Source: a virus. Taken from it: a stretch of DNA of 64,000 nt. Under the pieces are notes generated by a model that saw only the letters and a list, made by a program, of their open reading frames with translations, did no database searches and was not told where the DNA came from. Positions 44,317-61,323 of the stretch are shown piece by piece. Position 1 is the first letter of the stretch. Every line of letters starts with the position of its first letter. The DNA is taken from IMG/VR virus record IMGVR_UViG_3300023179_000012, one strand, 5' to 3'. The position numbers were made by a program, and so were the translations under genes.

Positions 44317-44394
44317 TAACCCATTGTGGATATTGGACTTACGACAAAATTTCGCCGCCGGGTTTGTCATAAGTCCTTGTCTGACAAGCACTTA
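44317..44394. repeat. 78-bp element E1
   Basis: TAACCCATT-N7-TTGGACTTA / 28 bp / TAAGTCCTT-N7-AAGCACTTA. Confidence 0.85.
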
Positions 44395-44411
44395 CAACAA
44401 ATGGCGTGAGG

Positions 44412-44458
44412 GTGGAAACCGCCGTAGGTTATTCCCTCTTTCCCTACGGCGGCTCCAC
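44412..44458 (-). terminator. strong hairpin downstream of DUF932 gene
   Basis: CCGCCGTAGG/CCTACGGCGG stem extended by GTGGA/TCCAC; weak U-tract. Confidence 0.55.
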
Positions 44459-44476
44459 TATCTCCACGAAAGAGCA

Positions 44477-45421
44477 TCAGATTGCGTTGGCAAACTCTAG
44501 AGCAGATTCCAACGCCTTATTATTATCATTGGCATTTTGACCGAACCACAAACTATCAAGGCGATTATCAGTGGTGCGACCCTTACCATAGTTCAGATAT
44601 TCATTGAACCCGTTATAGGCGGCCCACCAAGTACCGCGAACATTAGCCGCAGTCTGTTTCGGGCCTTCGATACGAGCCAGAATATCATCCATAATATTAC
44701 GGGTACGAGTCTTAATATCCTCGTCAGCACCCTTAATATTCAGGACAACCTTAACATACTTCTCAATATCCTTCTGGTTGAAACTCTTGCTAGCAAGGAA
44801 CCGATACTGTTCCGCAGTAGCCTCAAAACCAGCGTTAATATTATCCATAATATCGCGGACTTGTTCCAGATTCTTCTGGCTGGAGCGAGTGTGGCGAATA
44901 CGGATCAGTTTGCTATCATTATGCTTGTGAGCATACGACAGCGTGTTCACGCAGACCACGCGAATCGGAGTGTATCCGACACGAATAGCCGTTGTACCGT
45001 CGTGACTATTACTCAGCAGGATAAACTTGCTAACCTCATCACCCGGAACAATCTCGCTATTATCTCGGTTGAGTTGAGCAAGCACCCAGACCTTTTGACC
45101 GAGATGCAGCGATCCGGCAGTATGGATCGAACACTCGTTAGCGTCGAGGAAAGGCTGGAACCAATCAAACGCATCCTTATTCTGGAGCGGAGTATAACGA
45201 GGGCCGACAACGCCAAGGATGCTGCCATCGCTCTTGCGATAGGTCGCACGATGGTTCACAGGCGTACCGTCAACGGTCTGCAAATCCTTCAGACCTACTT
45301 CCCAATCCAGACCAGCAGCGACGATAGCATCATTCACATTGATACCCTCGTCAACGCTATTGCCAAGGCCATGCCAAGGCGTCTCACCAACAAACATCAT
45401 CTTTTCAACAGCAGCAGGCAT
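44477..45421 (-). CDS. DUF932-family phage/plasmid protein (TIGR03299-like)
   Basis: TPWHGLG, AAGLDWEV, YTPLQN, NSHDGTT, TPIRVVCVNTL, GTWWAAYN. Confidence 0.9.
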   Translation of the reverse strand: MPAAVEKMMFVGETPWHGLGNSVDEGINVNDAIVAAGLDWEVGLKDLQTVDGTPVNHRATYRKSDGSILGVVGPRYTPLQNKDAFDWFQPFLDANECSIHTAGSLHLGQKVWVLAQLNRDNSEIVPGDEVSKFILLSNSHDGTTAIRVGYTPIRVVCVNTLSYAHKHNDSKLIRIRHTRSSQKNLEQVRDIMDNINAGFEATAEQYRFLASKSFNQKDIEKYVKVVLNIKGADEDIKTRTRNIMDDILARIEGPKQTAANVRGTWWAAYNGFNEYLNYGKGRTTDNRLDSLWFGQNANDNNKALESALEFANAI

Positions 45422-45523
45422 AACTAACTCCTTCGTGTTTAACTTCTTCGTTCCGATGCACTGATTCTACCATCTAGTATCGTCTAGTCAAGCGGCAAAA
45501 CTTGTGAAAAAATTTTTTTGTTC

Positions 45524-45601
45524 TAAGTCATTGATTGGCAAGTACTTACGCTTCGGCCGCCGCCACCAACTGGACGTAAGTCCTTTAGTGATCTAGGTTT
45601 A
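45524..45601. repeat. 78-bp element E2
   Basis: TAAGTCATT-GATTGGC-AAGTACTTA / 28 / TAAGTCCTT-N7-CTAGGTTTA; contains perfect IHF consensus AATCAATGACTTA. Confidence 0.9.
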
Positions 45602-46088
45602 GGAGCGGAACCCCGAGATCACGCTTGCAGAGTTTAGAACCATCCTCATCATTACGATAAGCACATTCGTTAGGCAGATAGCAATACACACCAACACAAT
45701 GAGAACACGAGTATTCATCCTTGATTACTTTTTTAATATGTTTTACGGTTCCACCAGAACAGATTAAATCGTCTAATATAATATATTGAAAAGGGGCCAC
45801 TCCCTCGGTACGAAACTCTGAATAGCATTGTTCCCCCTTTCTTACCACAACAATATTCTTGTTGAGTAACTCTGCGATTTGTGGAACCACCATCAATCCA
45901 CTTACACCGCAGCAGGCAATACTATCAAAGTCTTTGGCAATCTTTCGCAGATCACACACGGCCTTAATAATAATCTTATTTCTAGCCTTATGATTTAAAA
46001 CGTGACAGGTATGGCTAGCACCCTGAATATATTTTCCTTCTGTAGTTTTACGAACATCCTCAATCTGATTATTCAAAATATTGGTCAT
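45585..46088 (-). CDS. type I phosphoribosyltransferase
   Basis: PRPP-binding loop YIILDDLICSGGTV; VVVRK. Confidence 0.85.
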   Translation of the reverse strand: MTNILNNQIEDVRKTTEGKYIQGASHTCHVLNHKARNKIIIKAVCDLRKIAKDFDSIACCGVSGLMVVPQIAELLNKNIVVVRKGEQCYSEFRTEGVAPFQYIILDDLICSGGTVKHIKKVIKDEYSCSHCVGVYCYLPNECAYRNDEDGSKLCKRDLGVPLLNLDH

Positions 46089-46093
46089 AAAAA

Positions 46094-46184
46094 CGATGGA
46101 CGGCCGGATTCGAACCGACTAAGAAAGGAAAGATAAAGCGATATGCTTATAATAGAATACTTGTCCCACCAAGTTGCATCCATC
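46094..46184 (-). ncRNA. tRNA-like RNA lacking a recognisable anticodon arm
   Basis: Acceptor GATGGAT/GTCCATC-G; T-arm GTCGG-TTCGAAT-CCGGC; 39-nt AT-rich centre. Confidence 0.55.
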
Positions 46185-46197
46185 AGACGAGAAAGGG

Positions 46198-46365
46198 CTA
46201 TTCGTTATCTAGTTCATCCACTACATTATGATAATAGTGTTCGTACTCTTTTTCATCCTCAAAATCATCATAATCTGGTTCGTCAGAATAGTCAGCATAA
46301 TCATAGAGTTCTTCTGAATCTTCCACAATACGATCATAATCAAACTCATATTCATTTTCAAACAT
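46198..46365 (-). CDS. small hyper-acidic protein (55 aa, 25 D/E)
   Basis: MFENEYEFDYDRIVED...; AAGGAG RBS; promoter TTGACA-16-TATGAT. Confidence 0.7.
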   Translation of the reverse strand: MFENEYEFDYDRIVEDSEELYDYADYSDEPDYDDFEDEKEYEHYYHNVVDELDNE

Positions 46366-46416
46366 AGCCACTTTCTCCTTTTCCACTATCATACACCAAC
46401 GAACACGATTGTCAAG

Positions 46417-46487
46417 TAGGGGCCGAAGGTAACGCTCCTTCTTCAATAGATTAAAAGTCTATTGCATCACTTTAATGCTTGACCCCC
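46417..46487 (-). tRNA. tRNA-Lys(TTT), atypical T-loop
   Basis: Anticodon arm ATAGA-CTTTTAA-TCTAT; T-loop AGCGTTA; A at position 8. Confidence 0.75.
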
Positions 46488-46546
46488 GCGAGGAAATCCA
46501 TTATACCAAGTATTATCGGTTTGTCAAGACCAAAAACTTGAATCTT

Positions 46547-46584
46547 TCGCTGACTATCGCCAAGACTGCAAATCCGAAGGATAG
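46547..46584 (+). repeat. repeat family 2
   Basis: TCGCTGACTA...AAATCC-GAA-GGATAGG. Confidence 0.85.
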
Positions 46585-46591
46585 GGTAAAA

Positions 46592-46662
46592 CAAAGGCGG
46601 AGGGAATCGAACCCTCATCTACGGTTTTGGAGACCGTCATTCTACCGTTGAACTACGCCAAT
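46592..46662 (-). tRNA. tRNA-Trp(CCA), two acceptor-stem mismatches
   Basis: ACGGT-CTCCAAA-ACCGT; acceptor ATTGGCG/CGCCTTT. Confidence 0.75.
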
Positions 46663-46743
46663 GTTCGTAACTCAGACCGTCAGCCTCCGGTTTGCTATCA
46701 TACTCTATTATCGACAAGAAGCAAGTGAATTCTTTAGTTTTTC

Positions 46744-46821
46744 TAAGTCTAATCGTACCAAGCACTTATAACTATATCGCGCCGCCATATTTTACCTAAG
46801 TCCTTTATCTATAAGCGGATA
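46744..46821. repeat. 78-bp element E3
   Basis: TAAGTCTAA-N7-AAGCACTTA / 28 / TAAGTCCTT-N7-AAGCGGATA; right edge overlaps tRNA-Gly 3' end. Confidence 0.85.
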
Positions 46822-46884
46822 GAGAGAATCGAACTCTCGTCAACTGATTGGAAATCAGTGGCTCTACCATTGAGCTACATCCGC
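46814..46884 (-). tRNA. tRNA-Gly(TCC)
   Basis: ACTGA-TTTCCAA-TCAGT; acceptor GCGGATG/TATCCGC-T. Confidence 0.9.
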
Positions 46885-46887
46885 AAA

Positions 46888-46974
46888 CGGAATCTGAGGG
46901 ATTCGAACCCCCGGAGGATTTTAACCCTCGGCGGTTTAGTAAACCGCTGCCTTAAACCACTCGGCCAAGATTCC
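46888..46974 (-). tRNA. tRNA-Ser(ACT)
   Basis: GCGGT-TTACTAA-ACCGC; long variable arm; G discriminator. Confidence 0.85.
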
Positions 46975-46977
46975 AAA

Positions 46978-47049
46978 CTGGCTCGGTAGGACTCGAACCT
47001 ACAACCGGGCGGTTAACAGCCGCCAGCTCGACCATTGAGCTACGAGCCA
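46978..47049 (-). tRNA. tRNA-Asn(GTT)
   Basis: GGCGG-CTGTTAA-CCGCC. Confidence 0.92.
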
Positions 47050-47052
47050 ATA

Positions 47053-47123
47053 TTCCGGGACTACGATTTGAACGTAGAATAAAGGATCCAAAGTCCTCTG
47101 TGATACCGTTTCACCATCCCGGA
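47053..47123 (-). tRNA. tRNA-Gln(TTG)
   Basis: AGGA-CTTTGGA-TCCT; acceptor TCCGGGA/TCCCGGA. Confidence 0.88.
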
Positions 47124-47124
47124 G

Positions 47125-47196
47125 AGCCGACAGAGGGAATCGAACCCCCGACAGGTTGTTTACAAAACAACTACTCTACCACTGAGTTACGTCGGC
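47125..47196 (-). tRNA. tRNA-Thr(TGT)
   Basis: GTTGT-TTTGTAA-ACAAC. Confidence 0.92.
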
Positions 47197-47198
47197 AA

Positions 47199-47399
47199 TC
47201 ATTCATTCATCCCTTTAAGGATTCCAACAATAACAGCCACTCCAAATAAAATACCCAAACCACCAGCACTAAAACACGCTGATACAATCATAAATCCAAG
47301 AACTATCATTACTAAAGTGCCACAACCATTATTATCTGATGGTGGTAATCGTCTGGCATCTCTACCAGCGTCTCGCCAAAGTCCATACGGGAAATACAT
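47199..47399 (-). CDS. small membrane protein
   Basis: Two hydrophobic segments. Confidence 0.55.
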   Translation of the reverse strand: MYFPYGLWRDAGRDARRLPPSDNNGCGTLVMIVLGFMIVSACFSAGGLGILFGVAVIVGILKGMNE

Positions 47400-47867
47400 A
47401 TTTCACCTAAATATCATACTCGTTACGCCATAGTTTGTCAATAGCGTTTCGTGTACGGAGCCGCTTGGGCCTGTTGTCCATAGTTGTATCTCGGTATTCC
47501 TTGTGTCCCGTAGGCACTTCCCACGGTTTCTTGACCTTGATTTTGATAACTTTGCGGCGTCGTGGAATATCGTCGTTGTTCTGGAGCGTAATCATGCCAT
47601 TGTCCGTTTTCGTGAAGATAAAATACTTTGTCTACATTAGGATCGTAAGCCATTAAACAATATTGTATAGGATGCTTTACTGGCGTCAAATGCTTTTGTA
47701 TTATGGGTATTTTGATATCACCCTTTTGATAATCCTTTAATCCAGTATACGCTAGCCCTAAGACAGCAACCACTACGCCAATCCATTGTATCATACCATT
47801 TCCTTTTGTCAATCGTCGCTTCATAGATAGTTTATCGACCACGACGAGAAAAAACTTTAATCGTTCC

Positions 47868-47945
47868 TAAGTCATTGATTTGCAAGTACTTAGGATTAGA
47901 TGGCCGGGCCGCCCTTGTCCTAAGTCGTTTAGGATCAAGGGGTTA
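47868..47945. repeat. 78-bp element E4
   Basis: TAAGTCATT-GATTTGC-AAGTACTTA / 28 / TAAGTCGTT-N7-AAGGGGTTA; perfect IHF consensus. Confidence 0.9.
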
Positions 47946-47948
47946 CGA

Positions 47949-48191
47949 TTATTCATTATCGTCGCGGCTTAGTTCCCATCCTGCGGCTCTCACAATACTT
48001 TTTGTAGAGATTACATTAGTTTTAGAATCAGCACTAATATAGTCTCTATATCCACGTTCATCAGCATAAAAATATTCATCAATAATATCAAACTTATTAG
48101 TCATTAGCAGTCCCGTGATACTAGCCTCAAGAGCATCCTTACGACTAATAACAACTTCAAGAGTATTACTCTTTACATAAAACTTAGGCAT
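47949..48191 (-). CDS. hypothetical protein
   Basis: GGAG RBS; 80 aa. Confidence 0.6.
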   Translation of the reverse strand: MPKFYVKSNTLEVVISRKDALEASITGLLMTNKFDIIDEYFYADERGYRDYISADSKTNVISTKSIVRAAGWELSRDDNE

Positions 48192-48365
48192 GGTTCATCT
48201 CCGTTCCCAAATACTTCATATCCTCATCACAATCCGCACAAACCGGCGTACCAGTATCTTGATACCACCACGGCGTTACATTGATTTCATCCTCACAAGA
48301 AACACAACGCCAAACGTGACGGATTTTAGTATCATCAATAACTTGCCAGATTTCCATGATAACTC

Positions 48366-49070
48366 CTAGTGGGCAGGAAAGAGAACATTAGCCAGACCGC
48401 GAACACACAAGTCACACGATATACTATCCTTCGTGCCAGTGCAAGTAATAACAGACCGACCACGACGAATCTCGGGACAAGTTACAAACTTTGTGCCGTT
48501 CAGCACAACCAGTTTCGGCAAAGATTTACGCCAAGCCTCGGCCTTGATTTTGCTCTTGGGTCGCTTGGGTGCAATCTTCATATCGCTATCACACCATGCA
48601 AACTTTTTGAAACCTTGTGCAAGAGCCTCACCCATATCATTATCATCATGCACACTAGCATATACATTCATATACTTTTCCAGACTAACAAGCCGGGAAT
48701 CGTAGATATGAGTATAAAACCACATATCGGGCAGCGTGTCACCATCGGCAAGAATACTCTCACACGCCCACGTTACATTAGCAACATAGTCTAGGTCAAG
48801 TTCGCCATTGAGAAACCAGTCGCCACGCTCATGCCAGCGAATAGACTTTTTACGCTTTTTGGCGTCCAGAATCATAGCACGGATTTTGTTTTTCTCCGTG
48901 ACTACGTTAGCAAAACCAGCAACGCGAGCATTTTTATACTGATTCTCGGTAGCCTCGGCATAGCATCCATTATTGAGATAGTCACAGTCTGGAGGGCAAG
49001 TATCGCCAACCGGACGCGAAACCACAATGCAACCCTTACCCAACTTATCGTTACCGTCTGCTGTTTTCAT
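48366..49070 (-). CDS. Gp88-like phage protein
   Basis: TCPPDC...GCYA, IRWHERGD, WFYTH, FVTCPE, CDLC. Confidence 0.65.
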   Translation of the reverse strand: MKTADGNDKLGKGCIVVSRPVGDTCPPDCDYLNNGCYAEATENQYKNARVAGFANVVTEKNKIRAMILDAKKRKKSIRWHERGDWFLNGELDLDYVANVTWACESILADGDTLPDMWFYTHIYDSRLVSLEKYMNVYASVHDDNDMGEALAQGFKKFAWCDSDMKIAPKRPKSKIKAEAWRKSLPKLVVLNGTKFVTCPEIRRGRSVITCTGTKDSISCDLCVRGLANVLFPAH

Positions 49071-49152
49071 GGCTTTCTCCCTTGGTCTACCGATTCTACA
49101 TTATAGTATCGGCACGGTCAAGCGAAAAACTGTGATAAAAATATTTTTGTTG

Positions 49153-49230
49153 TAAATCCTTGTGGCATCAGCACTTAGAGCAAAACCGGCCCTCCGAATT
49201 CGTCATAAGTCCTTATGCTTCAATAACTTA
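49153..49230. repeat. 78-bp element E5
   Basis: TAAATCCTT-N7-CAGCACTTA / 28 / TAAGTCCTT-N7-AATAACTTA; ends 2 bp from tRNA-Asp 3' end. Confidence 0.9.
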
Positions 49231-49231
49231 G

Positions 49232-49305
49232 CGAGAGCGACGGGACTCGAACCCGCAACCTCTAGCGTGACAGGCTAGCGATCTAACCGATTGATCTACG
49301 CTCCC
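49232..49305 (-). tRNA. tRNA-Asp(GTC)
   Basis: CTAGC-CTGTCAC-GCTAG. Confidence 0.93.
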
Positions 49306-49676
49306 GAATTATAAATTATGATACCAGCATGTATTTCACTATGACAATTTTTACATACTAATATACATTTATCTAATTCTTTTTTTATTTTAGTTTCATT
49401 TTTAGAGAATGACGTATTCTTTATCTTACTTATATTAAAATCTTTTTTAGATGGATGAATATGATGAAAATCTAAAGATCCAATATATTTATTATATCCA
49501 CATATAATACAAGAACTACCCTTATATTCAACACATTTTGCCTTAAAGGCTCTCTGTCGATCTAGAGTATTCTGATGATTACACTTCCTACAATAACTTT
49601 GTATTTTCCCCTTACGATTACCAGATTTTACCTTATATGGTTTCTTTTCTATTTGACCACATTTTACGCATTTCAT
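49296..49676 (-). CDS. HNH endonuclease between two tRNA genes
   Basis: CIICGY...LDFHH...ELDKCILVCKNCHSEIH; much lower GC than flanks (by eye). Confidence 0.88.
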   Translation of the reverse strand: MKCVKCGQIEKKPYKVKSGNRKGKIQSYCRKCNHQNTLDRQRAFKAKCVEYKGSSCIICGYNKYIGSLDFHHIHPSKKDFNISKIKNTSFSKNETKIKKELDKCILVCKNCHSEIHAGIIIYNSGA

Positions 49677-49729
49677 ATTTTACCTCATGGATAGAATCTA
49701 AATATCTATCCATATTATACACCAATAAA

Positions 49730-49802
49730 TACTGCCGGAAGGATTTGCACCCTCGTGAGTCAACTTAGAAGGTTGATGCCTAATCTACTCGGCCACGGCA
49801 GC
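49730..49802 (-). tRNA. tRNA-Arg(TCT)
   Basis: TCAAC-CTTCTAA-GTTGA; T-loop TGCAAAT. Confidence 0.85.
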
Positions 49803-49866
49803 ATAAAACCGATAGCCGCCAGTTATTCACCAGCGGTCTATCGGATATTATAACATTATATTATGC

Positions 49867-50121
49867 TCAGGCAACAGCCTCGGCTTCCGATTCAACCTTG
49901 CCATTATGAGCATCCCCAGCCTGCTTCGCAGTCACACCAGTGACCCTAGCACGCCATACCTTATAACCCTGCTCGCTAAAAGCCTTGACTTCTCCAGCCT
50001 TGACGTTAGCATGAACGTCGCTGGGCAGAGCATCGGTCAGACAGGTGGAGATCGAATCCACCACAACCTCACGGTCAAGATCATCGGCAACAATATCAAC
50101 AACAAAAGAAAACTTCTTCAT
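49867..50121 (-). CDS. hypothetical protein
   Basis: Likely start MKKFSFVVDIV with GGAAAGG RBS. Confidence 0.6.
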   Translation of the reverse strand: MKKFSFVVDIVADDLDREVVVDSISTCLTDALPSDVHANVKAGEVKAFSEQGYKVWRARVTGVTAKQAGDAHNGKVESEAEAVA

Positions 50122-50314
50122 GGTAAAACCTTTCCAAGTAATAGTAGTAAACCCAACAAACACATTATACAAGAACCACAATCGCTTGTCAAGTTGCCAA
50201 TCCGAACTTTCTTAGTGTTGGGATCGGTTGGTCGCTTGTCTTGCGATGCTATCAGTATACCATTGTTATCGTCATTGTCAACAGCGGCTCGTGAATGTTT
50301 TTTTGCTTTTTTCC

Positions 50315-50392
50315 TAAATCATTGAACCATAAGCACTTACGTCAAAATCCCGCCGCCGTCCTTGCTCTAAGTCCTTTAGTAGCAAGGCTTTA
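50315..50392. repeat. 78-bp element E6
   Basis: TAAATCATT-N7-AAGCACTTA / 28 / TAAGTCCTT-N7-AAGGCTTTA. Confidence 0.9.
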
Positions 50393-50394
50393 AG

Positions 50395-50769
50395 TCAAGA
50401 GAGATAACCCTCACAACCCAAAGAGGTCAGATCACGCAGCAACCCTTCAGCCGCGTCGGGAGTCTTAGCGGTGAGAGTGATGGGATTACCACCACCAATC
50501 AAGAAGCCGCCAGCGTCCCACCGACCCACCATACCATCGGTCCAATCCTTCGATTCCTTGAGTCCCCAGCCGGTGTGCTGTCGAACAGCCTTGATGCAAG
50601 AGATACGGTTGTCCAAATCCATACCCTTGGTGATCGTAACCATTCGACGCTGGTTCACACCCAAGACCATCTCAAAAGCCTGCGTGATACGCTCTCTAAT
50701 ATCCTCCCTAGCATAGAAAGAAAGTTCCATAGCCTCACGAACACTCAGTTGCAGATTGATCATATTCAA
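50395..50769 (-). CDS. protein with ribosomal L7/L12 C-terminal-like domain
   Basis: NRISCIKAVRQHTGWGLKESKDWTD matches L7/L12 KxxxIKxVRxxTGLGLKEAK. Confidence 0.75.
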   Translation of the reverse strand: MNMINLQLSVREAMELSFYAREDIRERITQAFEMVLGVNQRRMVTITKGMDLDNRISCIKAVRQHTGWGLKESKDWTDGMVGRWDAGGFLIGGGNPITLTAKTPDAAEGLLRDLTSLGCEGYLS

Positions 50770-51191
50770 ACCCTTTCTTCCAAAATGTAAACTTGTTTGC
50801 CGTTAGTTAATAGAGTAGCATACTCGCTACCGTCCCAAATGAATTCGTTATTGTCGCTTTCTCGTCGCCAGTGCGGATCACGAAGTGGATTATAAAACAA
50901 CTTCTCAAGATTGTCAACAGGCAGAGCGGGATAAAAATCCTTCCTCAACATAACTTCTTCACATCTTACCCACCCACTAACATCATGCACACCAGCCTCA
51001 AACACCTGTTTAGCCTTATTCGGCCTATTCCACAACTTACAACCCCGCATCTCTAACTGATATTTTTTGGGGTCAACGTAGTATACATCAACTGTTTCCC
51101 CACCCTGCTTAACCTTTATTTGCCAGTGCATATAATGCTGGCCATTACTCAGGTGAAATCGAACTTCGCCATGTAGTTTGTTCTGTTTCAT
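50766..51191 (-). CDS. conserved phage hypothetical protein
   Basis: VRFHLSNGQHYMHWQIK...YNP..DPHW. Confidence 0.6.
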   Translation of the reverse strand: MKQNKLHGEVRFHLSNGQHYMHWQIKVKQGGETVDVYYVDPKKYQLEMRGCKLWNRPNKAKQVFEAGVHDVSGWVRCEEVMLRKDFYPALPVDNLEKLFYNPLRDPHWRRESDNNEFIWDGSEYATLLTNGKQVYILEERV

Positions 51192-51239
51192 GCTTATACT
51201 ATACCTTATCGACCAATCGTTGTCAAGACCTTTAAACTT

Positions 51240-51286
51240 TCGCTGACTACAGCCACTCTAGCCAAATCCGAAGGATTAGGAGAAAC
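51240..51286 (+). repeat. repeat family 2
   Basis: TCGCTGACTA...CCAAATCC-GAA-GGATTAGG. Confidence 0.85.
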
Positions 51287-51368
51287 AAGGCTGGCTTCCG
51301 CCATACTCGACCAGCATTTCAGATAGCCTCTTTTGATATCATTGTGGCTATCCCCAAGCCTTGCTCCC
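51279..51368 (-). ncRNA. candidate structured small RNA (3-way junction)
   Basis: Own promoter at 51371-51399; stems GCAAGG/CCTTGT, GATAGCC/GGCTATC, GCTGG/CCAGC; no ORF. Confidence 0.55.
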
Positions 51369-51419
51369 TAAGTCTACCAGTATTATCGGCGTTTGTCAAA
51401 TGGATTCTTTAAAAAATCC

Positions 51420-51497
51420 TAAGTCGTTACTGGATAAGCACTTAGATCAAATTCGCGGCCGCGGCCTCGTCGTAAGTCCTTTAATACCAATCACTTA
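51420..51497. repeat. 78-bp element E7
   Basis: TAAGTCGTT-N7-AAGCACTTA / 28 / TAAGTCCTT-N7-AATCACTTA. Confidence 0.9.
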
Positions 51498-51605
51498 GGT
51501 GCCACCAACCACAAGTACCACACCAGTACCACCACACACCATACTTATCTAGCCTATATGCCATATCATTGTTTTCACCACACACACAAATATCACTAAG
51601 AGTTT

Positions 51606-51860: not shown

Positions 51861-51863
51861 TAT

Positions 51864-53232: not shown

Positions 53233-53240
53233 ATATTTTA

Positions 53241-53532: not shown

Positions 53533-53544
53533 GAGCGAACCCTT

Positions 53545-54206: not shown

Positions 54207-54458
54207 ATTATCCTCAGTTAGTAGTAGTGGTCAAAGCAGAATACTTACCATCACGCCTAGCAGCCTCAAGAGCATCACAGAAAAAATCACTAAAATCTTC
54301 CATAACGCTCAAAGCATCTTCTCTAGTACCATCCAGAATAGCATCAGTAAATACTATCACAAAATCAGCAACCCGCTCACGAACCATCACAATCTCTTTT
54401 TTGCTCAACATCTCTCTCCCCTTTTCAATCTTTATACCAAAACCCAATCCGTTGTCAA

Positions 54459-54531
54459 TAGCCCCACGGAGGATCGAACTCCGATCTCCGGGATGAAAGC
54501 CCGGTATACTAAACCATTATACTATGGGGCC
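54459..54531 (-). tRNA. tRNA-Glu(TTC)
   Basis: CCGGG-CTTTCAT-CCCGG. Confidence 0.92.
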
Positions 54532-54733
54532 GAGACTCGCTCAATCCAAATATAGTCACCATATTTAGCCTGTGCTTTTTTCATAGCATCAAACTCGCTC
54601 AAAGCGACAATGTAGCCAGCAAACTTATTGTTTGCAAATACACGCCAAGTATAACCAGCATAGCAGTTAGCAGTAGTCATAGCGTTATTCTAATCTATTA
54701 TCGGCACTTGTCAAGAGAAGTCTTTAGTTTTTC

Positions 54734-54811
54734 TAAGTTGTTGCAGTATAAGGACTTACAACAAATCCGGCCCCGCAGCCATGCCCTAAGTCCTTGTTTA
54801 ACAAAGACTTA
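54734..54811. repeat. 78-bp element E10
   Basis: TAAGTTGTT-N7-AAGGACTTA / 28 / TAAGTCCTT-N7-AAAGACTTA. Confidence 0.9.
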
Positions 54812-54828
54812 GAGCAACTGGCCGAGAA

Positions 54829-55239
54829 TCAGAACAGAAGACTAGCAAGGCCGGTTTTGAACGCGACCCCACCAAGGAGGGGACGACGCACATTGCGTGT
54901 ACGCTCCGCGTAGAAGTTGCGAATCTTACCGTCCGGAGTTTGAGCAGTCACAAGATGACGGCTACGCTCAAAGTTCGGATCATTTCTACGATACCTACTT
55001 TTACTATTCAGTCGAGCAAGATAATCGTCAGAAAATCGGTGAACACCAATAACCCTAGCCATAAAACGTTCAGGATCACCAGTAACAGGCTGCACATATT
55101 CAAAGTTATAAACACCACCAACCCTAGCATTTGTCAGACTATCACGAAGACCACTATACAGATGGAAAACGCTAAAAGCCACAATGCCAGAAACCGCACC
55201 AACAACCGCACACAAACCAATCAGAACTTCGTTAGTCAT
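54829..55239 (-). CDS. membrane-anchored hypothetical protein
   Basis: Likely start MTNEVLIGLCAVVGAVSG (TM). Confidence 0.6.
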   Translation of the reverse strand: MTNEVLIGLCAVVGAVSGIVAFSVFHLYSGLRDSLTNARVGGVYNFEYVQPVTGDPERFMARVIGVHRFSDDYLARLNSKSRYRRNDPNFERSRHLVTAQTPDGKIRNFYAERTRNVRRPLLGGVAFKTGLASLLF

Positions 55240-55331
55240 CAGACACCCTTTCGTTGTGAAAATCAAACACCTAGTACGCACATTCTACAGTATTATCGTC
55301 GTGTGTCAAGCCCAAACTTTAGAGATTTTGG

Positions 55332-55637
55332 TCACTCGCCATCATCATAATAGCCGTAACCATCATCACTATGAAAATCCTCACAACAGTCTACATCTTC
55401 GCCAAAATAACCGTAATCCTCATCGGTTCCCCATCCAGCGGAAGACAATGCACTCTCAGTATCGCCATCCATACTATCATCATACGAATCATCCCAACTG
55501 TTCTCCAACTCCTCGCCATCAATCTCGCCGTAAAAATCATTGTAATCGTCATAGTTCGACGCATCAACATCATCAGCGTAGTTCATATCATCCTCATAAG
55601 AGTTATCGGGATCGAACAGGGGGTCAGGATGGCTCAT
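55332..55637 (-). CDS. hyper-acidic protein (101 aa, 37 D/E, no K/R)
   Basis: MSHPDPLFDPDNSYEDD...; GGAG RBS; promoter at 55664-55691. Confidence 0.75.
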   Translation of the reverse strand: MSHPDPLFDPDNSYEDDMNYADDVDASNYDDYNDFYGEIDGEELENSWDDSYDDSMDGDTESALSSAGWGTDEDYGYFGEDVDCCEDFHSDDGYGYYDDGE

Positions 55638-55722
55638 CTTAGGTTTCTCCGTTGTGTGATCCGATTCTATATCTATTATCGACGTTGTCAAGTGTAGAAC
55701 TTTAAAAATATCTTTTTTGTTC

Positions 55723-55800
55723 TAAATCCTTATATAGCAAGTACTTACGATTCGCCCGGCGGCGCCACTCTAACGTAAGTCCTTATTTTCCAAAGAGTTA
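55723..55800. repeat. 78-bp element E11
   Basis: TAAATCCTT-N7-AAGTACTTA / 28 / TAAGTCCTT-N7-AAAGAGTTA. Confidence 0.9.
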
Positions 55801-55802
55801 GA

Positions 55803-56060
55803 TTATTTGAGAATATATTCTATTTCTTGTCCATTCGCAATCATAGCAGCATATATCTCAATACGCTTATCTTTCTCCCGTTTCTCAATCTGATGGTCGG
55901 TTTCTGTTACATCACGAGAATCGCACTTTCGCTCAAGATCAGCCAGGGTAACACCATCGGTACGATGGTCACGAAAATCCTCCGGCAACCACGAGTTAGG
56001 CACCACCACAATATCCCGCACAACTCGCTCAAACTCAGCAATCAGTTCATAACCGTTCAT
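55803..56060 (-). CDS. hypothetical protein
   Basis: Likely start MNGYELIAEF with AAGGAG RBS. Confidence 0.6.
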   Translation of the reverse strand: MNGYELIAEFERVVRDIVVVPNSWLPEDFRDHRTDGVTLADLERKCDSRDVTETDHQIEKREKDKRIEIYAAMIANGQEIEYILK

Positions 56061-56130
56061 TTTCTTCTCCTTGGTTGTGAGGCAGTCTATCAAAATCTTT
56101 TTGGCTTGTCAACAGCAAAATCCCACTTTT

Positions 56131-56178
56131 TCGCTGACTACAGCCACACTGACCAAATCCGTAGGATTGGCTGAGACT
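56131..56178 (+). repeat. repeat family 2
   Basis: TCGCTGACTA...CCAAATCC-GTA-GGATTGGCTGAGACT. Confidence 0.85.
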
Positions 56179-56400
56179 AATCGAAATCTCTCATAGCCTG
56201 TCGCTTCTGGTCACTGCGAGTGCGAAGTCGCTTGGGTCGGTTGTCGTGCTGACCAGATCCAGACATATGGCTAGAATGACCCTTACCCATCTCCCACACT
56301 GGACGAATGTTCAGCCGAATCGCGTCGTATTTCTTTCGCTTGCTCATACTCGTATCCTACCATATATTATCGGCTAGTCAATAGAGAATCTTTATTTTTC

Positions 56401-56478
56401 TAAGTCTTTGATACACAAGTACTTACGAAAAAATCGCCGCGCCCGGCTCGACGTAAGTCCTTGCCGGGGTTAGAGTTA
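56401..56478. repeat. 78-bp element E12
   Basis: TAAGTCTTT-N7-AAGTACTTA / 28 / TAAGTCCTT-N7-TTAGAGTTA. Confidence 0.9.
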
Positions 56479-56553
56479 CGAGTTAACCACCCATGCGGCA
56501 GCACACCCAACAACAAAACTTATTACAAATACGCAAATATCCAAAACTTTCAT
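56476..56553 (-). CDS. 25-aa single-TM microprotein
   Basis: MKVLDICVFVISFVVGCAAAWVVNS; ATGA overlap with upstream ORF. Confidence 0.5.
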   Translation of the reverse strand: MKVLDICVFVISFVVGCAAAWVVNS

Positions 56554-56654
56554 TCTTTTCCCCTTATAGGATAAACCAAATCACGAACACTATAACTAGC
56601 AAACACACCGATAATAAATCCCACACCGATTTGTACCCAGTTAATATCGGCCAT
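56550..56654 (-). CDS. 34-aa single-TM microprotein
   Basis: MADINWVQIGVGFIIGVFASYSVRDLVYPIRGKE. Confidence 0.5.
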   Translation of the reverse strand: MADINWVQIGVGFIIGVFASYSVRDLVYPIRGKE

Positions 56655-56668
56655 CCCTAGCCCCTTTC

Positions 56669-56752
56669 TTAAATGTTTTTCCCGTACTCAATAATAGCAC
56701 ACATTACTCCTGCAAAAATAATCAGGAATAGCATACTAATAAAATAACCCAT
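56669..56752 (-). CDS. 27-aa single-TM microprotein
   Basis: MGYFISMLFLIIFAGVMCAIIEYGKNI; TGATG overlap with upstream ORF. Confidence 0.5.
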   Translation of the reverse strand: MGYFISMLFLIIFAGVMCAIIEYGKNI

Positions 56753-57060
56753 CACGATACCACCATCCCATCAATAAAAGGGTATTCCTTACCATTAATC
56801 TTAACATACCAAGTAAAATCCCTCTGGTAAACCCGTACCGGGCTATACTGGTTAATCCTATCCTTAGTGGTAACAGTTTGCCAACCCCCACTATTAAGGG
56901 TATAGGTGCCATCATCCCGAATCTTTACAACGTATGTACTGTGCAACTTAATAGCCACAGTATTATCGCTCAGGATTTCCGCATAGGTATTATTACCAAT
57001 CTTTCGGCTATCCTTATTCCGCTTGCCACGAACCATCTTAATCGCTTCGGCGTGTGTCAT
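56752..57060 (-). CDS. conserved phage hypothetical protein
   Basis: LHSTYVV...TLNSGGWQTVTTKDRIN. Confidence 0.65.
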   Translation of the reverse strand: MTHAEAIKMVRGKRNKDSRKIGNNTYAEILSDNTVAIKLHSTYVVKIRDDGTYTLNSGGWQTVTTKDRINQYSPVRVYQRDFTWYVKINGKEYPFIDGMVVS

Positions 57061-57161
57061 TTTCTTTTCTCCTTACTTCTATTATCGGTATTTTACAGGC
57101 TAAACTTGAGAAAGTCAAGAAAATAATCCTGTGCCAAATGCGAATATTTTTTAGAATGTCC

Positions 57162-57239
57162 TAAGTCCTTATGGGGCAAGTACTTACGCAAAAATCGCCA
57201 CGGCCCCCGCGTCATAAGTCTTTACGCGGAAAGGCTTTA
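57162..57239. repeat. 78-bp element E13
   Basis: TAAGTCCTT-N7-AAGTACTTA / 28 / TAAGTCTTT-N7-AAGGCTTTA; ends 3 bp from IHF/HU stop. Confidence 0.92.
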
Positions 57240-57241
57240 TG

Positions 57242-57523
57242 TCAACTGTTCAACTGTTCAGCCATAACTTTACCCGGCTTGAATCGCACCACACGCCGCT
57301 GTCCGATCATCACGGCTTCGCCCGTGCGAGGATTGCGGGCCTTGCGAGGTGCGGTCACCTTTACGGTGAACACCCCGAAGTTTCGCAGTTCGATGCGTCC
57401 AGTTTCGACCAGCGTTGCTATCATATTGTCCAGAGTAGCCTGCACGATCTCGCGTGCCTGCTGACCCGTAACGCCAACCCGCTCCGCAACCTGTTCGACC
57501 ATACCACGCTTCGTTCCGATCAT
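57242..57523 (-). CDS. IHF/HU-family DNA-bending protein
   Basis: TKRGMVEQVA...GRIELRNFGVF...ARNPRTGE...VVRFKPGK; intercalating Pro in RNP retained. Confidence 0.95.
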   Translation of the reverse strand: MIGTKRGMVEQVAERVGVTGQQAREIVQATLDNMIATLVETGRIELRNFGVFTVKVTAPRKARNPRTGEAVMIGQRRVVRFKPGKVMAEQLNS

Positions 57524-57573
57524 TTCACTTTCTCCGTTGTGATGTTTCTATTCTACAGCCACTATTCTAAAAA

Positions 57574-57750
57574 TCAAGAGCAAAAATCTGCTGGCTCGGG
57601 ATACATTTCTTCCCACAACCCAGTCACTTCGGCATAATCAAACGGGTCGCAATCAACCTCGTCGATAGGTTCGACCATAGGCTCGATCATACCATCGTCA
57701 GCGAGTTGAGAGAGGATAGCGTTGATGGTATCGGTGTCATCGAGGATCAT
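57574..57750 (-). CDS. small acidic protein (58 aa, 17 D/E, no K/R)
   Basis: MILDDTDTINAILSQLADDG...; GGAG RBS; promoter upstream. Confidence 0.6.
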   Translation of the reverse strand: MILDDTDTINAILSQLADDGMIEPMVEPIDEVDCDPFDYAEVTGLWEEMYPEPADFCS

Positions 57751-57881
57751 ATCGTTTCTCCGTTGGGGTGATGCGATGATTCTACAGTTATTATCGACAA
57801 ATGCAAGCCCACACCTTGAGAATAATCCTATGCCAAACTAAAAATATTTTCTGACACGGTATTTTCTTGGATCATTTTCTC

Positions 57882-57959
57882 TAAGTGCTTGTGCAGAAAG
57901 GACTTAGGAAAAATCCGGCCCGGCGTCCTCGCCGTAAGTCTTTACGGATCAAGGACTTG
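57882..57959. repeat. 78-bp element E14
   Basis: TAAGTGCTT-N7-AAGGACTTA / 28 / TAAGTCTTT-N7-AAGGACTTG. Confidence 0.9.
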
Positions 57960-58570
57960 CGTCATTATTTAGATAACACGCAATAACATAGGCCAACATA
58001 ACTAATAATAAATGTAAGTGCAGCAAGCATTATAATATTCCTTTATTTGGCGTGAATAAATACGTTTTTACTAGCGGTCTGATTTGTTACAGTCACAATC
58101 CAGTTTTTTCCGCTACCATCTTCCCGAAGAATACCGTTGATGATACCAACGTGTACATTACCCTTGGGATCAGTAACAGTGCCATACTTTCCAGACCGCA
58201 TAGCACTCATAATCTTATCAAGACTATTCATTATACTATAACCTTTCAGTTAGCGTTAGCAGGCTCAAAAATATCCAGAACATTACACTTGTCAACATAG
58301 ATTGAACGATATCCATGCTCACACTTGACGGTGAGAAGAATACGCTCTCCAAACTGACGCACCCTAGTCACAACGCCGTCAACAACCTCTCCGTTGTTAT
58401 ACTCGGCATGAACAGCATAACCAGCCATGGGAACCTTACTCGTCATTCTACCCTTTCTTTCTCTCTTCTATTATCGACATTATACAGGCGATTCTTTAGG
58501 TTGCAAGCAAAATCTTTGGATTTTTGTGTCAAGATTTTTTGACAAAACTTTTCTGTTTTTCGGTATGGTT

Positions 58571-58586
58571 TGGCATACCGTTTGCT
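58571..58586 (+). promoter_or_regulatory. sigma54-type -24/-12 motif
   Basis: TGGCATACCGTTTGCT (GG-N10-GC); C(-12) is 15 bp before E15. Confidence 0.65.
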
Positions 58587-58600
58587 GATGCGATTTTCCC

Positions 58601-58678
58601 TAAGTCGTTACGCTGTAAGTACTTACGTCAAATTCGCTGCGCCCATATCGTCGTAAGTCCTTACGCCGTATGGGTTTG
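58601..58678. repeat. 78-bp element E15
   Basis: TAAGTCGTT-N7-AAGTACTTA / 28 / TAAGTCCTT-N7-ATGGGTTTG. Confidence 0.9.
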
Positions 58679-59170
58679 CGTCAACTCTGTCCCGGATAGA
58701 TTCTTCCGCTCTTGAGTCGCTGTACAAGCGTATCGTAATCGTCAGTCGTGAACAGCGTATAATAAGCATCCCGCTCCTGCACGATCCACTTGCGAGTGTA
58801 TCCGTTCCACACACTAGCCACGACCACACCGAGAGAGTTAGCCAGAGATACGATTTCAGCATTCATTTTCAAGATACTCCCATCCAAGATGCTTTTTCCA
58901 CACAGTAATCATAGAATATATCGTTCAAAACTTCAAGATGGTTTTTTTCGGTCAAACGACGACGAGCAAGGATAGCATCGCACTCTGCGAAAAACTTACC
59001 CGTGGACACTTCATATACAATCGTACACGCATACGATTCGCTTCCCCAAATCCTAGCCTTAACATCAACGAACTTCTTCAACATCTGTTTTCTCCTCTTC
59101 TCTCTTCTATTATCGACATTCTATCAGACTTTCTTCAACATTTCAAGAGGGCAAAAAAGATTTTTGTAGC

Positions 59171-59186
59171 AGCAAATATCGTGCCA
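59171..59186 (-). promoter_or_regulatory. sigma54-type -24/-12 motif
   Basis: TGGCACGATATTTGCT on minus strand, adjacent to E16 left edge. Confidence 0.65.
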
Positions 59187-59190
59187 ATCA

Positions 59191-59268
59191 TAAGTCGTTG
59201 TCTGATAAGCACTTAGGCACAAGTCGTGCCGCCGAGTTCGACGCAAGTCCTTACGCCACAAGGATTTA
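59191..59268. repeat. 78-bp element E16
   Basis: TAAGTCGTT-N7-AAGCACTTA / 28 / CAAGTCCTT-N7-AAGGATTTA. Confidence 0.9.
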
Positions 59269-59323
59269 CGTCGAATTGTTGTACAGTAGTGTACAGGCTT
59301 ATATCCCCATAATAGGGGGCTTA

Positions 59324-59647
59324 TTACCCCTCCCACCCAAAGGGGGATACTTCCTCACCGCAAGCCTGAATAGCGGCATACTGTTCGATTAGAGCCTCTA
59401 CACGTTCACGCGATCCAGGTTTGCCAACCTTCACGATCATGGTATCCTCACCACCAACCATGCGAGAATCTACCTTCTCGCTCTTGCTCTTGCCGATATT
59501 CTTCAATGCGGTGCGATTGAACTTCAGCACCTTTTCGCTGCGAATCGTTCCACCATCTGCGTTAGTTTTGTCGCAAGGGATAGCGATACCAACGAAGCAC
59601 ATACGGGCAACTCGCTCAGCATCACGAACAATCTTAGGCTTTTTCAT
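59324..59647 (-). CDS. hypothetical basic protein
   Basis: 107 aa; AGGAG RBS. Confidence 0.6.
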   Translation of the reverse strand: MKKPKIVRDAERVARMCFVGIAIPCDKTNADGGTIRSEKVLKFNRTALKNIGKSKSEKVDSRMVGGEDTMIVKVGKPGSRERVEALIEQYAAIQACGEEVSPFGWEG

Positions 59648-60024
59648 TTTCTTTCTTTCTCCTTTGGATGATGGATCGTACTAAACTTTTCCCTGTGACG
59701 CAACCCCTCAAATGAGGGACGCTTCGCGCTCCTTGCGAAACTTGATGGCGTACAGTTCGTCCACAACAACGCGAACCACGGTATCCATGCTGACACTCTT
59801 GTGGGTATAGTATCCACAATGGATAGCGAACAGGCTATACGTACCGGGAACACCGGATGGTATCGACCCCACACTGTGGGGGTGAAGGGTAAAACCCGCA
59901 TTGTAAGCGTAACGGCGAATACTCTTGCGAATCGTTTCAATTTTTGGGATTCTCATCTCTATCTCTCTTTCTCTTTCCAGTATTATACCAAACTTTTTCG
60001 ACAGCACAACCCCCACAACGGGGG

Positions 60025-60201
60025 TCACCATCCGTTTCTCCGACACTCATCGGCCCAATCCCGATCCTCTTGACGGGTACGATCATTATACCCGTATCCA
60101 CCATAGGTAAGGTAGTTATCCTTCATGGCATCGTATCCATCATCCGAATCGTGAACATCGTCAAAATCTTCGTAATCGTACAGGGGGTCAGGGCAACTCA
60201 T
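60025..60201 (-). CDS. small acidic protein, paralog of 55332..55637 (58 aa)
   Basis: MSCPDPLYDYEDFDDVHDSDDGY... vs MSHPDPLFD...HSDDGY. Confidence 0.6.
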   Translation of the reverse strand: MSCPDPLYDYEDFDDVHDSDDGYDAMKDNYLTYGGYGYNDRTRQEDRDWADECRRNGW

Positions 60202-60232
60202 TTTTCACTCTCTCTTTCTTACCTCTATATAG

Positions 60233-60248
60233 TGCATGTTCTGTGCCA
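60233..60248 (-). promoter_or_regulatory. sigma54-type -24/-12 motif upstream of ORF at 60201
   Basis: TGGCACAGAACATGCA. Confidence 0.6.
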
Positions 60249-60355
60249 AAAGTCGAAAAATATTTTTGTGCGACTTTCTCGACGATTTCCGCAGGCTGTC
60301 ACCTTGGCACTATGTCATATTGGCAAAGTCTGCCATTTTTGGCTGCCGTATTGTT

Positions 60356-60371
60356 TGGCACGATATCTGCT
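60356..60371 (+). promoter_or_regulatory. sigma54-type -24/-12 motif
   Basis: TGGCACGATATCTGCT; 15 bp before E17. Confidence 0.65.
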
Positions 60372-60385
60372 GTGGTCATTTGATC

Positions 60386-60463
60386 TAAGTCGTTATGCCA
60401 CAAGTACTTACGTCGAATCCGCGGCCGCGAATTTTTCGTAAGTCCTTACGCCGTAAGGGTTTG
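60386..60463. repeat. 78-bp element E17
   Basis: TAAGTCGTT-N7-AAGTACTTA / 28 / TAAGTCCTT-N7-AAGGGTTTG. Confidence 0.9.
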
Positions 60464-61215
60464 CATCAAGTCGTTGTACAGTAGTGTACAGGCGTACACC
60501 CCACTACAGTGGGGATGCACAAGCGTACACTGAGCCGAATGGTACGTTATGCTGATTAGCATATACTGAACGAGCATCCGCCCAATCCTTAGCAAGTACC
60601 ATGCCAAGGTAGAAATCATTTTCCGAATTGTAGATATAGTAGGTTTTCATGATTAGGAGATCAGTTCCATATCCTCATTGTAGCACTCGTACTCATCTCC
60701 GTCAATCTCTACGTGCCACACATCACCCTCATCGAAATGCCAGCGAATGATTCGACCAATCTTTCCGTCAACCTTCACCTTATCACCAAGAGCAAACTGC
60801 ATTTTCTTTCTCCTTACTTCTTATATCGGTATTCTATCAAATATTTTTTAGATTATCTACCCCCTTATCGGGGGATCGTAATCAGATCACCAAAATGTGA
60901 GAACGTCAACTTGAGAACCCTATTCGGATATTTCTCATCGATATACTTCTGTGCAGTGCTTTTCCGATTATCGGTAGCACTCACACCCTGTACAACTGTA
61001 CCGTTCTCATCAATCACCTTCCAAACCTTCTTTTGAACGATACGCGGAAGGCTTTGGATGAAATCGTTGATATGAGTAACCTTTTCCATTTTTCTTTCTC
61101 TCTTTCTTTCTTCTCTTTTCTCTTGTGCTTTCATTATACAGTATATATCGGCCATTGCAAGCGAAATCTTTTGAAAAAATAAAAAATAATTCTGTGCCAA
61201 ATCAAAAAAACTTTT

Positions 61216-61231
61216 TGGTATACCGTTTGCT
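61216..61231 (+). promoter_or_regulatory. sigma54-type -24/-12 motif
   Basis: TGGTATACCGTTTGCT; 15 bp before E18. Confidence 0.65.
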
Positions 61232-61245
61232 CTCTCGATTTCTTC

Positions 61246-61323
61246 TAAACCCTTATACCACAAGCACTTACACGCTCTTCGGCGTGACAAACAAGACGTA
61301 AGTCCTTATAATATCAGCACTTA
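61246..61323. repeat. 78-bp element E18
   Basis: TAAACCCTT-N7-AAGCACTTA / 28 / TAAGTCCTT-N7-CAGCACTTA. Confidence 0.9.

Follow-up and report, generated by a model that had tools for sequence, protein, structure and literature searches.

Introduction

Sites for serine recombinases (res sites) are built from two or three dimer sites, some of them with HU or IHF between. In Bacillus phage SPO1 the phage-encoded HU-family homodimer TF1 has preferred sites in the early region and needs hydroxymethyluracil DNA; we know of no regular, fixed-geometry pairing of TF1 sites of the kind reported below. To our knowledge next to nothing is known of how large uncultured phages control their early genes. Of the systems described so far, the PeSL (promoter-early stem-loop) cassette of T4-type phages comes closest; in it conserved promoter-linked motifs are tied to indels (PMC2839356, PMC4122927). 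Here we describe an array of 18 double-palindrome elements of 78 bp in a 64,000-nucleotide stretch of DNA (IMG/VR virus record IMGVR_UViG_3300023179_000012; this whole stretch is referred to as the window) from an uncultured lake phage of ~230 kb. The evidence points to the element being a docking system for a candidate regulatory or DNA-bending protein, and literature searches by half-site words and by concept returned no description of such an element.

Results

Eighteen elements share one geometry

Both strands of the window were searched for TAAGTCCTT-N7-AAGNACTTA allowing up to three mismatches. The search returned 64 strand-matches against 0.5 expected and all of them were located at 42.7-61.3 kb. 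When laid out in register, 18/18 elements consisted of 25+28+25 bp with palindrome centres 53 bp apart, confirming the 18 complete elements of invariant geometry that had been reported in a first-pass annotation of this DNA. Three elements (E2, E12 and E15) had been placed there 53 bp too far left. In these three the well-formed palindrome is the left one (first on the plus strand) because the typical spacer comes after it, and the outer half of the second palindrome is degenerate, being of a TAAACC type that is common across the family. The half copies reported at 42726 and 44224 were also present, as single palindromes. The genes of the window are on the minus strand, as are its ten tRNAs and its tmRNA, and this places the elements upstream of leftward-reading promoters. 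The elements and single palindromes are:

44317..44394, minus strand, E1 double-dyad element, last of the array and not followed by a strong promoter
45524..45601, minus strand, E2 (corrected register), upstream of the promoter of the DUF932 cassette
46744..46821, minus strand, E3, upstream of the tRNA-Trp cassette
47868..47945, minus strand, E4
49153..49230, minus strand, E5, upstream of the GP88/DUF7227 cassette
50315..50392, minus strand, E6
51420..51497, minus strand, E7
52622..52699, minus strand, E8
53455..53532, minus strand, E9
54734..54811, minus strand, E10
55723..55800, minus strand, E11, upstream of the acidic-protein cassette
56401..56478, minus strand, E12 (corrected register)
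57162..57239, minus strand, E13, starts 3 bp past the stop of the IHF-like gene
57882..57959, minus strand, E14, upstream of the cassette with the IHF-like gene
58601..58678, minus strand, E15 (corrected register)
59191..59268, minus strand, E16, followed 4 nt later by a sigma54-like TGGCAC-N5-TTGCT
60386..60463, minus strand, E17
61246..61323, minus strand, E18, first of the array in the direction of transcription
44224..44248, unstranded, single palindrome 69 bp beyond E1, at the array end
42726..42750, unstranded, isolated single palindrome outside the GC-raised array

The element array coincides with a jump in G+C content (GC) from ~0.33 to ~0.44.

The palindromes are conserved in sequence and not in pairing

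The anatomy of the element was determined from 446 unique elements, and position numbers refer to the 78-bp element. Seven positions were conserved in 100% of these (A2, T23, T24, A55, A56, T76 and T77), and A3 together with the AA/TT steps at 8-9, 17-18, 61-62 and 70-71 was conserved in 89-98%. The invariant positions of a palindrome read TAA-N4-TT-N7-AA-N4-TTA. This skeleton alone found 25 matches in the window against 0.9 in shuffles, and 24/25 of these were inside the array. The A-tract, the G/C-only core and the CG(A/T)C...G(A/T)CG symmetry that had been noted in the spacer are real, and the symmetry proved to be an outward extension of each palindrome to ~39 bp (TTGnCG...CGnCAA). Between the extended palindromes a 14-bp G/C-only core is left, with the consensus GGCCGGCC, which is itself a dyad. 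The inner half-sites also keep GT/AC within N4 in the window and in many relatives. The first-pass annotation had found the inner halves best conserved, which is correct within the window; across the family this is partly an artefact, as the family-wide element set was selected with the motif as seed. In lineages retrieved independently of the motif N4 drifts and the skeleton, the 53-bp period, the G/C core and a TTTGACG flank persist.

Typical palindrome arms carry 1-3 central mismatches. Every arm pair of both palindromes and the spacer part of the central dyad were assessed for covariation, and no excess of complementary pairs was found at variable arm positions. Complementary pairs were in deficit at positions 59/73 (z = -8.5), 63/69 (z = -7.5) and 6/20 (z = -5.5); perfect symmetry of the palindromes is in fact avoided. 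Positive covariation was limited to two pairs in the G/C core, where the loop is too small for a hairpin. Because the arms show no compensatory changes, the elements would be duplex protein sites, read by something symmetric, and not hairpins.

Each element lies upstream of a sigma70-type promoter

On the coding strand each unit has the order element, A/T-tract region and near-consensus sigma70 promoter (TTGACA-16/17-TAGAAT). The promoters of the window are:

45464..61160, minus strand, sigma70-type promoters, 19-43 nt downstream of elements
45491, 47812, 49121, 50281, 51399, 52591, 53423, minus strand, first-hexamer starts, part 1
54714, 55691, 56381, 57118, 58506, 59146, 61160, minus strand, first-hexamer starts, part 2

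Promoter-like sites were enriched in the window (88 vs 36.9 expected) with the best ones nearly all on the minus strand, and terminator-like sites in the window were at chance level (13 vs 13.1 expected). The link to promoters was also assessed with 533 elements from 112 loci. A strong sigma70-like promoter was present on one side only, on the right in 191 and on the left in 147, and in none on both sides; with orientation assigned by promoter side, element orientation was uniform within every one of the 112 loci. The -35 box lies mainly at 19-21 or 29-32 nt from the element end, two classes that differ by one helical turn. At the other edge the stop codon of the upstream gene lies most often 5-6 nt before the element (32/81 elements with a nearby open reading frame end), and other upstream stops fall up to ~40 nt before the element or 13-23 nt inside it. 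The commonest upstream stop is a TGA within the conserved TTGACG flank; otherwise the stop is at or just inside the first bases of the element. As the stop codons abut the elements, the intergenic space is made up of element, A/T tract, promoter and leader.

That the elements structure the early region, as had been proposed, is reasonable: every promoter-led cassette has one element and the coding strand is enriched in sigma70-like promoters, with "early" remaining a putative label. The protein-DNA architecture proposed at the same time is supported by the lack of arm covariation, the geometry fixed throughout the family and the fixed place upstream of promoters.

Further motifs were seen at these promoters. 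The word CGATAATAGA occurs in 7 exact copies (46704, 53405, 54694, 55672, 57078, 58467 and 59106), all on the coding (minus) strand, between or just past the hexamers of many array promoters. With up to one mismatch there were 18 matches vs 6.1 expected; the word may serve as another operator or as a -10 box that overlaps. At E13, E14 and E18 the stretch from element to promoter contains a third motif, TTGGCACAGRATTAT (57123-57137, 57822-57836 and 61186-61200, minus strand; 4 matches vs 0.5 expected). The sigma54-type motif TGGCAY-N5-TTGCW was enriched in the window (11 vs 3.4 expected) and six copies adjoin E15-E18 on both strands (58571 plus, 59171 minus, 60233 minus, 60356 plus, 60591 minus and 61216 plus), the copy at 59171 beginning 4 nt past E16 on the coding strand. 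A reading of these as part of a sigma54-enhancer system was unsupported, with no PF00158 activator found in five related genomes of both element types.

The element is conserved in a family of large phages

To follow the element beyond the window, the exact inner pattern with 28-bp spacing was used as a probe and found in >115 stretches of IMG/VR contigs of up to 244 kb. The carriers are uncultured phages of 210-245 kb, represented by >100 IMG/VR contigs. In five complete relatives (223-244 kb) the palindromes were confined to one region of 17-22 kb with 15-25 elements and raised GC. Palindrome pairs in 115 related loci (~1 Mb) were spaced by 53 bp in 412 cases, 54 bp in 5 and 52 bp in 1, with no other value between 44 and 63. 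Constant spacing in relatives, which the earlier annotation had set as a check, therefore holds (53 bp in 412/418 pairs). It also holds in loci retrieved through a protein and not through the motif, where 16/17 pairs were spaced by 53 bp.

Host genomes were scanned as well. In 185,579 bacterial and archaeal species genomes 11 stretches were found, six of which were small contigs of metagenome-assembled genomes (MAGs) that carry phage arrays and are assigned to four phyla. The remaining stretches were chance matches, so that the motif is not a host repeat. A separate AT-rich intergenic repeat, CCTAAGTCCTTATCTNTCCGGAATTTACG, was seen twice, 84 bp apart, in one Gammaproteobacteria MAG (locus L119, 6430-6545; 1.67-Mb contig, GC 0.65), with AAAGGACTTACG between the copies. 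It has the word TAAGTCCTT in common with the phage element and is probably unrelated.

A second element type occupies the same slots

Arrays of a different element, here called type 2 (the 78-bp element being type 1), were found in 93 IMG/VR stretches. Type 2 consists of TGCCA-N3-TGGCA twice with a 16-bp G/C-rich spacer and is 42 bp long. The complete genomes G006 and G007 carry type 2 in one array and have no type 1, and each array is of a single element type. The window array is collinear with the G006 array, with matching blocks mostly at 70-84% nucleotide identity. At five orthologous junctions between the two the flanks align and the 78-bp element is replaced by the 42-bp type-2 element. 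At the DUF932 junction the alignment reaches the TAA stop of the upstream gene, which is the first three bases of palindrome 1, is lost exactly across the element and resumes at the A/T tract, the -35/-10 boxes, the leader and the gene. Arrays made up wholly of one type imply a matching trans-acting factor. Single-type arrays with the flanks kept would be expected of cis-sites tied to one putative trans-acting factor and held uniform by concerted evolution.

One array gene is specific to type 1:

55332..55640, minus strand, acidic-protein gene after E11, 102 aa, largely Asp, Glu and Tyr, predicted disordered

This gene is present in the type-1 genomes G001 and G005 and not in G006 or G007. Its product was rejected as a DNA binder, being extremely acidic and disordered; it looks like a DNA mimic that could target a host DNA-binding protein.

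Several side observations concern the type-2 arrays. A CCGATA variant of CGATAATAGA is retained at the orthologous G006 promoter, and type-2 loci such as L192 have the same sigma54-type motifs beside their elements. Type-1 genomes carry a B12-type (class II-like) ribonucleotide reductase (G001 91344-93536) and G006 and G007 a different large-subunit type (G006 146051-147703), and this swap happens to track element type in the four genomes compared.

The half-sites resemble IHF cores and one cassette carries an IHF-like gene

Read from the palindrome centre outwards each half-site is YAA-N4-TTA, which is the core (CAA-N4-TTR) of the IHF consensus. All four half-sites contain YAA-N4-TTR, and no other part of them is better conserved; a full WATCAANNNNTTR match was seen only in E2 and E4. 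The prolines of HU and IHF are spaced 9 bp apart. In IHF, 6 bp separate T44 of the TTR element from the kink closest to it (PMC5829579). Applied to the element, this register would place kinks between T8 and T9 and between A17 and A18, 9 bp apart because the half-site gap is 7 bp.

A member of the same protein family is encoded in the array:

57242..57523, minus strand, 93-aa HU/IHF-family gene, closer to IHF than to HU, carried as an array cassette

Its product matched PF00216 with 97 bits and scored 75 bits with IHF alpha/beta models vs 38 bits with HU models, and its best solved relatives are IHF. Homologues with 64-84% identity lay inside type-1 arrays in 21/21 loci examined and typically end ~9 bp before the next element. 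No HU/IHF gene was found in 797 kb of type-2 loci nor in 5 type-2 genomes. The nearest cellular relatives are HU/IHF proteins of Planctomycetota with ~60% identity (Tautonia, Isosphaeraceae and Planctomycetaceae), and one mis-binned array contig lies in a Planctomycetota MAG. These are a hint that Planctomycetota may be a host or the gene donor.

Cassettes are gained, lost and reordered

Comparison of six genomes showed cassette gain and loss and one change of order. Of the 354 starts of BLAST homology blocks, 78 fall no more than 20 bp from the element's upstream edge, ~5-10x more often than elsewhere, and block ends are enriched just before the same edge. The first-pass annotation had proposed a recombination site that shuffles promoter-gene cassettes and had seen no recombinase gene in the window. 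No PF00589 gene is present there. Domain searches of five complete relatives also found no tyrosine recombinase (PF00589, no match above cut-off), serine recombinase (PF00239) or Y1 transposase (PF01797), on which ground site-specific recombination at a dedicated site was rejected. The shuffling itself stands, as gain, loss and one reordering between relatives, and it probably occurs at or next to the elements by ordinary recombination. Recombination that uses the repeats or is bounded by them would then be a consequence of the element, as has been described for PeSLs, and not its reason for being.

Other features of the window

GC at 44000-62000 was 0.41-0.45 vs 0.27-0.36 elsewhere and the same contrast was seen in five complete relatives; this might reflect a tuning of early genes to a host of higher GC, at a time when the phage has yet to make tRNAs of its own. 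The ten tRNA genes sit within array cassettes. An HNH endonuclease gene (49296-49676, minus strand) lies between tRNA-Asp and tRNA-Arg within a cassette and has 68-73% nucleotide identity to HNH genes of Yersinia/Klebsiella jumbo phages and Lak phages. Another array gene (50395-50769, minus strand) has a weak match to the C-terminal domain of ribosomal protein L7/L12 (PF00542, 26.9 bits, barely above the cut-off). The window further encodes a DNA ligase, an endonuclease, a Sir2-like protein and HNH endonucleases. Megablast against cultured phages gave no nucleotide match to the window, distant blastn against them gave matches limited to tRNA and HNH pieces, and the best protein identity to any cultured phage was at most 32%. 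An Rfam search of the window returned tRNAs and a tmRNA only.

Discussion

A proposed element for docking protein at early promoters

The data favour, by a little over an even chance in our judgement, a reading of the element as the protein-docking part of a modular early-promoter cassette. On the minus strand a unit opens with the stop codon of the prior gene. Palindrome 1 comes next and is separated from palindrome 2 by the 14-bp G/C-only core and its short conserved flanks; a UP-like region of A/T tracts then leads into the near-consensus sigma70 promoter, after which come a Shine-Dalgarno site and the small genes or tRNAs. The palindromes would be duplex sites for a symmetric protein, in the simplest case two dimers or one tetramer, and being five helical turns apart they place both sites on the same face of the DNA. 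The binder may be a DNA bender of the HU/IHF family, either the host's own or the IHF-like protein encoded in the array. This family leads the candidates because the invariant positions form two inverted IHF cores (YAA-N4-TTR) with kinks 9 bp apart; judged from these sequence patterns, a host or phage HU/IHF-type bender is the best single candidate, with clearly less than an even chance of being right. Two sharp in-phase bends would fold ~90 bp upstream of the promoter into a compact loop. From its fixed position such a loop could boost or set promoter activity, and it could insulate a cassette from read-through and supercoiling of the preceding one, a role suggested by the lack of an excess of intrinsic terminators in the array. 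It could also give the phage one handle on all early promoters. As a by-product the repeats would serve as homology patches for cassette gain, loss and reordering. The anatomy of the element, its link to promoters, the lack of a pairing signal, its conservation in the family, the replacement of one type by another in the same slots and the mosaic boundaries are observed; protein binding, the identity of the binder, bending and an effect on transcription we infer.

Several results count against parts of this reading. Some promoters inside cassettes have no element, so that the element is not required for promoter function itself, and the periodicity statistic of promoter distance has no peak at 10.5 bp, leaving helical phasing as only suggestive. 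No HU/IHF gene was found in the 115 seed loci or in the five complete element-bearing genomes. The IHF-like protein was for this reason rejected as a universal partner: a phage IHF cannot be what binds the element in general, and the role would fall to a protein of the host. The elements do not conserve the WATC of the E. coli IHF consensus, and the conserved GT/AC in N4 and the flanking CG lie outside that consensus and look like base-specific reading by a different protein. Type 2, with 13-bp palindromes and a 29-bp period, cannot be an IHF site, so that the general solution for the slot is a double dyad for some protein and not IHF as such. Element type also does not follow relatedness, with G006 having 216 reciprocal best hits with type-1 G001 and 130 with type-2 G007. 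A search of four complete genomes and the window for a gene that covaries with type gave only metabolic genes and unannotated small open reading frames (a ribonucleotide-reductase class swap, a sulfotransferase, a SpoU methylase and the small frames), none with a recognisable DNA-binding domain.

A wider version of the docking reading is less likely than not. It holds that these lytic jumbo phages of lakes run their entire early programme through a cis/trans specificity system, in which a double dyad with its 14-bp G/C core occupies a fixed slot ahead of each early promoter. The double dyad would exist in at least two mutually exclusive types, kept alike over ~18 copies by concerted evolution and matched by a putative tetramer-like factor that would switch, insulate or time the early cassettes all together, the type-1 factor being an HU/IHF-type bender that forms a double U-turn. 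If true, this would put an "immunity-type" logic into the early region of a virulent phage.

Alternative explanations

The mosaic boundaries could mean that the repeats are mainly crossover points for promoter-gene cassettes, acting through homologous recombination or an unrecognised site-specific system. The presence, absence and order of cassettes do vary among the six genomes, and breaks in homology blocks pile up at the element's upstream edge. PeSLs offer a precedent as promoter-linked motifs tied to indels (PMC2839356, PMC4122927). The array GC of ~44% vs 33% would fit frequent recombination, and codon adaptation of early genes to a GC-richer host also explains it. We nevertheless think this explanation unlikely, as a homology patch needs no 53-bp geometry, dyad symmetry, G/C core or set distance to a promoter, and the variable loops and spacers reduce homology between copies. 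The five complete relatives have no tyrosine or serine recombinase or Y1 transposase, and the precise swap of type with the flanks kept calls for selection that holds each genome to one type, something a passive crossover site does not account for.

If the palindromes were instead transcribed, they could act as hairpins that terminate, process or stabilise the upstream mRNA. The element begins at the upstream stop codon or a few nt from it, the window scan saw no separate terminators, and on the coding strand the G/C core is followed by a short T run, two such spacers having been caught by the terminator scan. This T run is only 3-4 nt, however, and lies inside the element, where no stable stem precedes it. 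Compensatory changes are missing from all three dyads, symmetric pairs are avoided and the arms typically have 1-3 central mismatches; it is the sequence that is conserved and not the pairing, which makes a signal at the RNA level very improbable. A selfish miniature element of MITE or REP/BIME kind that colonises intergenic spaces would also be multi-copy, roughly palindromic and ~90 bp long, and a second, unrelated family does occupy the same slots in relatives. Such an element would hardly be held to a single array in all complete genomes examined, always with the same orientation and distance to the promoter. No transposase was found in the five complete relatives, no target duplications were seen at the orthologous swap, and no copy was found on bacterial chromosomes, the genome matches being small MAG contigs with phage arrays. 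We consider a mobile origin highly unlikely.

Significance

The promoter link, the strand, the IHF-type skeleton with an IHF-like gene in the array, and the interchangeable second element type were absent from the first-pass annotation. The array provides a sharply defined cis-element with 12 invariant bases, exact geometry, hundreds of natural variants and two interchangeable types, and this element is open to synthesis and direct testing. There is a concrete candidate family for the binder and a 93-aa protein that can be expressed. The window and G006 amount to a natural swap experiment; it shows that promoter and module can be separated, and it makes it feasible to look for the trans-acting factor by comparison. 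The element would extend the "regulatory cassette" idea of T4-type PeSLs to a protein-docking form, and it helps to account for the exchange of small early genes and tRNAs in blocks. A binder of IHF type would mean a new promoter architecture, with two U-turns in phase ahead of the promoter.

Comparison with known systems

Among known IHF sites the likeness lies in the YAA-N4-TTR of each half-site, the implied kinks 9 bp apart and an extended site of ~39 bp that is near the size of an IHF footprint. Known IHF sites are asymmetric and single, whereas here two inverted cores form a true dyad that is paired at 53 bp and repeated ~18 times. Compared with the IHF consensus WATCAANNNNTTR, the element has no WATC and has the extra GT/AC and flanking CG. 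TF1 is similar in being a phage-encoded HU/IHF-family protein linked to the phage's own early-promoter region; here most relatives do not have the gene.

Res sites likewise have several dimer-type dyads at fixed spacing within ~90-120 bp. They differ from the present element, which has unrelated half-sites, nothing that looks like a crossover core and one copy per promoter, and no resolvase (PF00239) was found in the five complete relatives. REPs and BIMEs also consist of palindrome pairs with a linker between genes, and some BIMEs bind IHF. REPs are G/C-rich hairpins that occur genome-wide and are linked to RAYTs, in contrast to the one array per genome seen here, with no covariation and no RAYT (PF01797). 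The attC sites of integrons serve promoterless cassettes and conserve a fold with free sequence, while the cassettes here have their own promoters and conserve sequence and not pairing; no IntI-type tyrosine integrase (PF00589) was found in the five complete relatives or the window.

The PeSL cassette remains nearest. Both are composite motifs with a sigma70-type early promoter, repeated between small variable genes in a plastic region with indels. The phages described here are not T4-like (at most 32% protein identity to cultured phages) and their element does not have the stem-loop by which a PeSL is recognised. A PeSL has as its upstream part a short G/C stem-loop, interpreted as a terminator, and the counterpart of that part here is different in kind, a ~90-bp pair of dyads with no terminator features, a fixed 53-bp period, dyads of 25 bp (39 bp when extended) and two interchangeable types.

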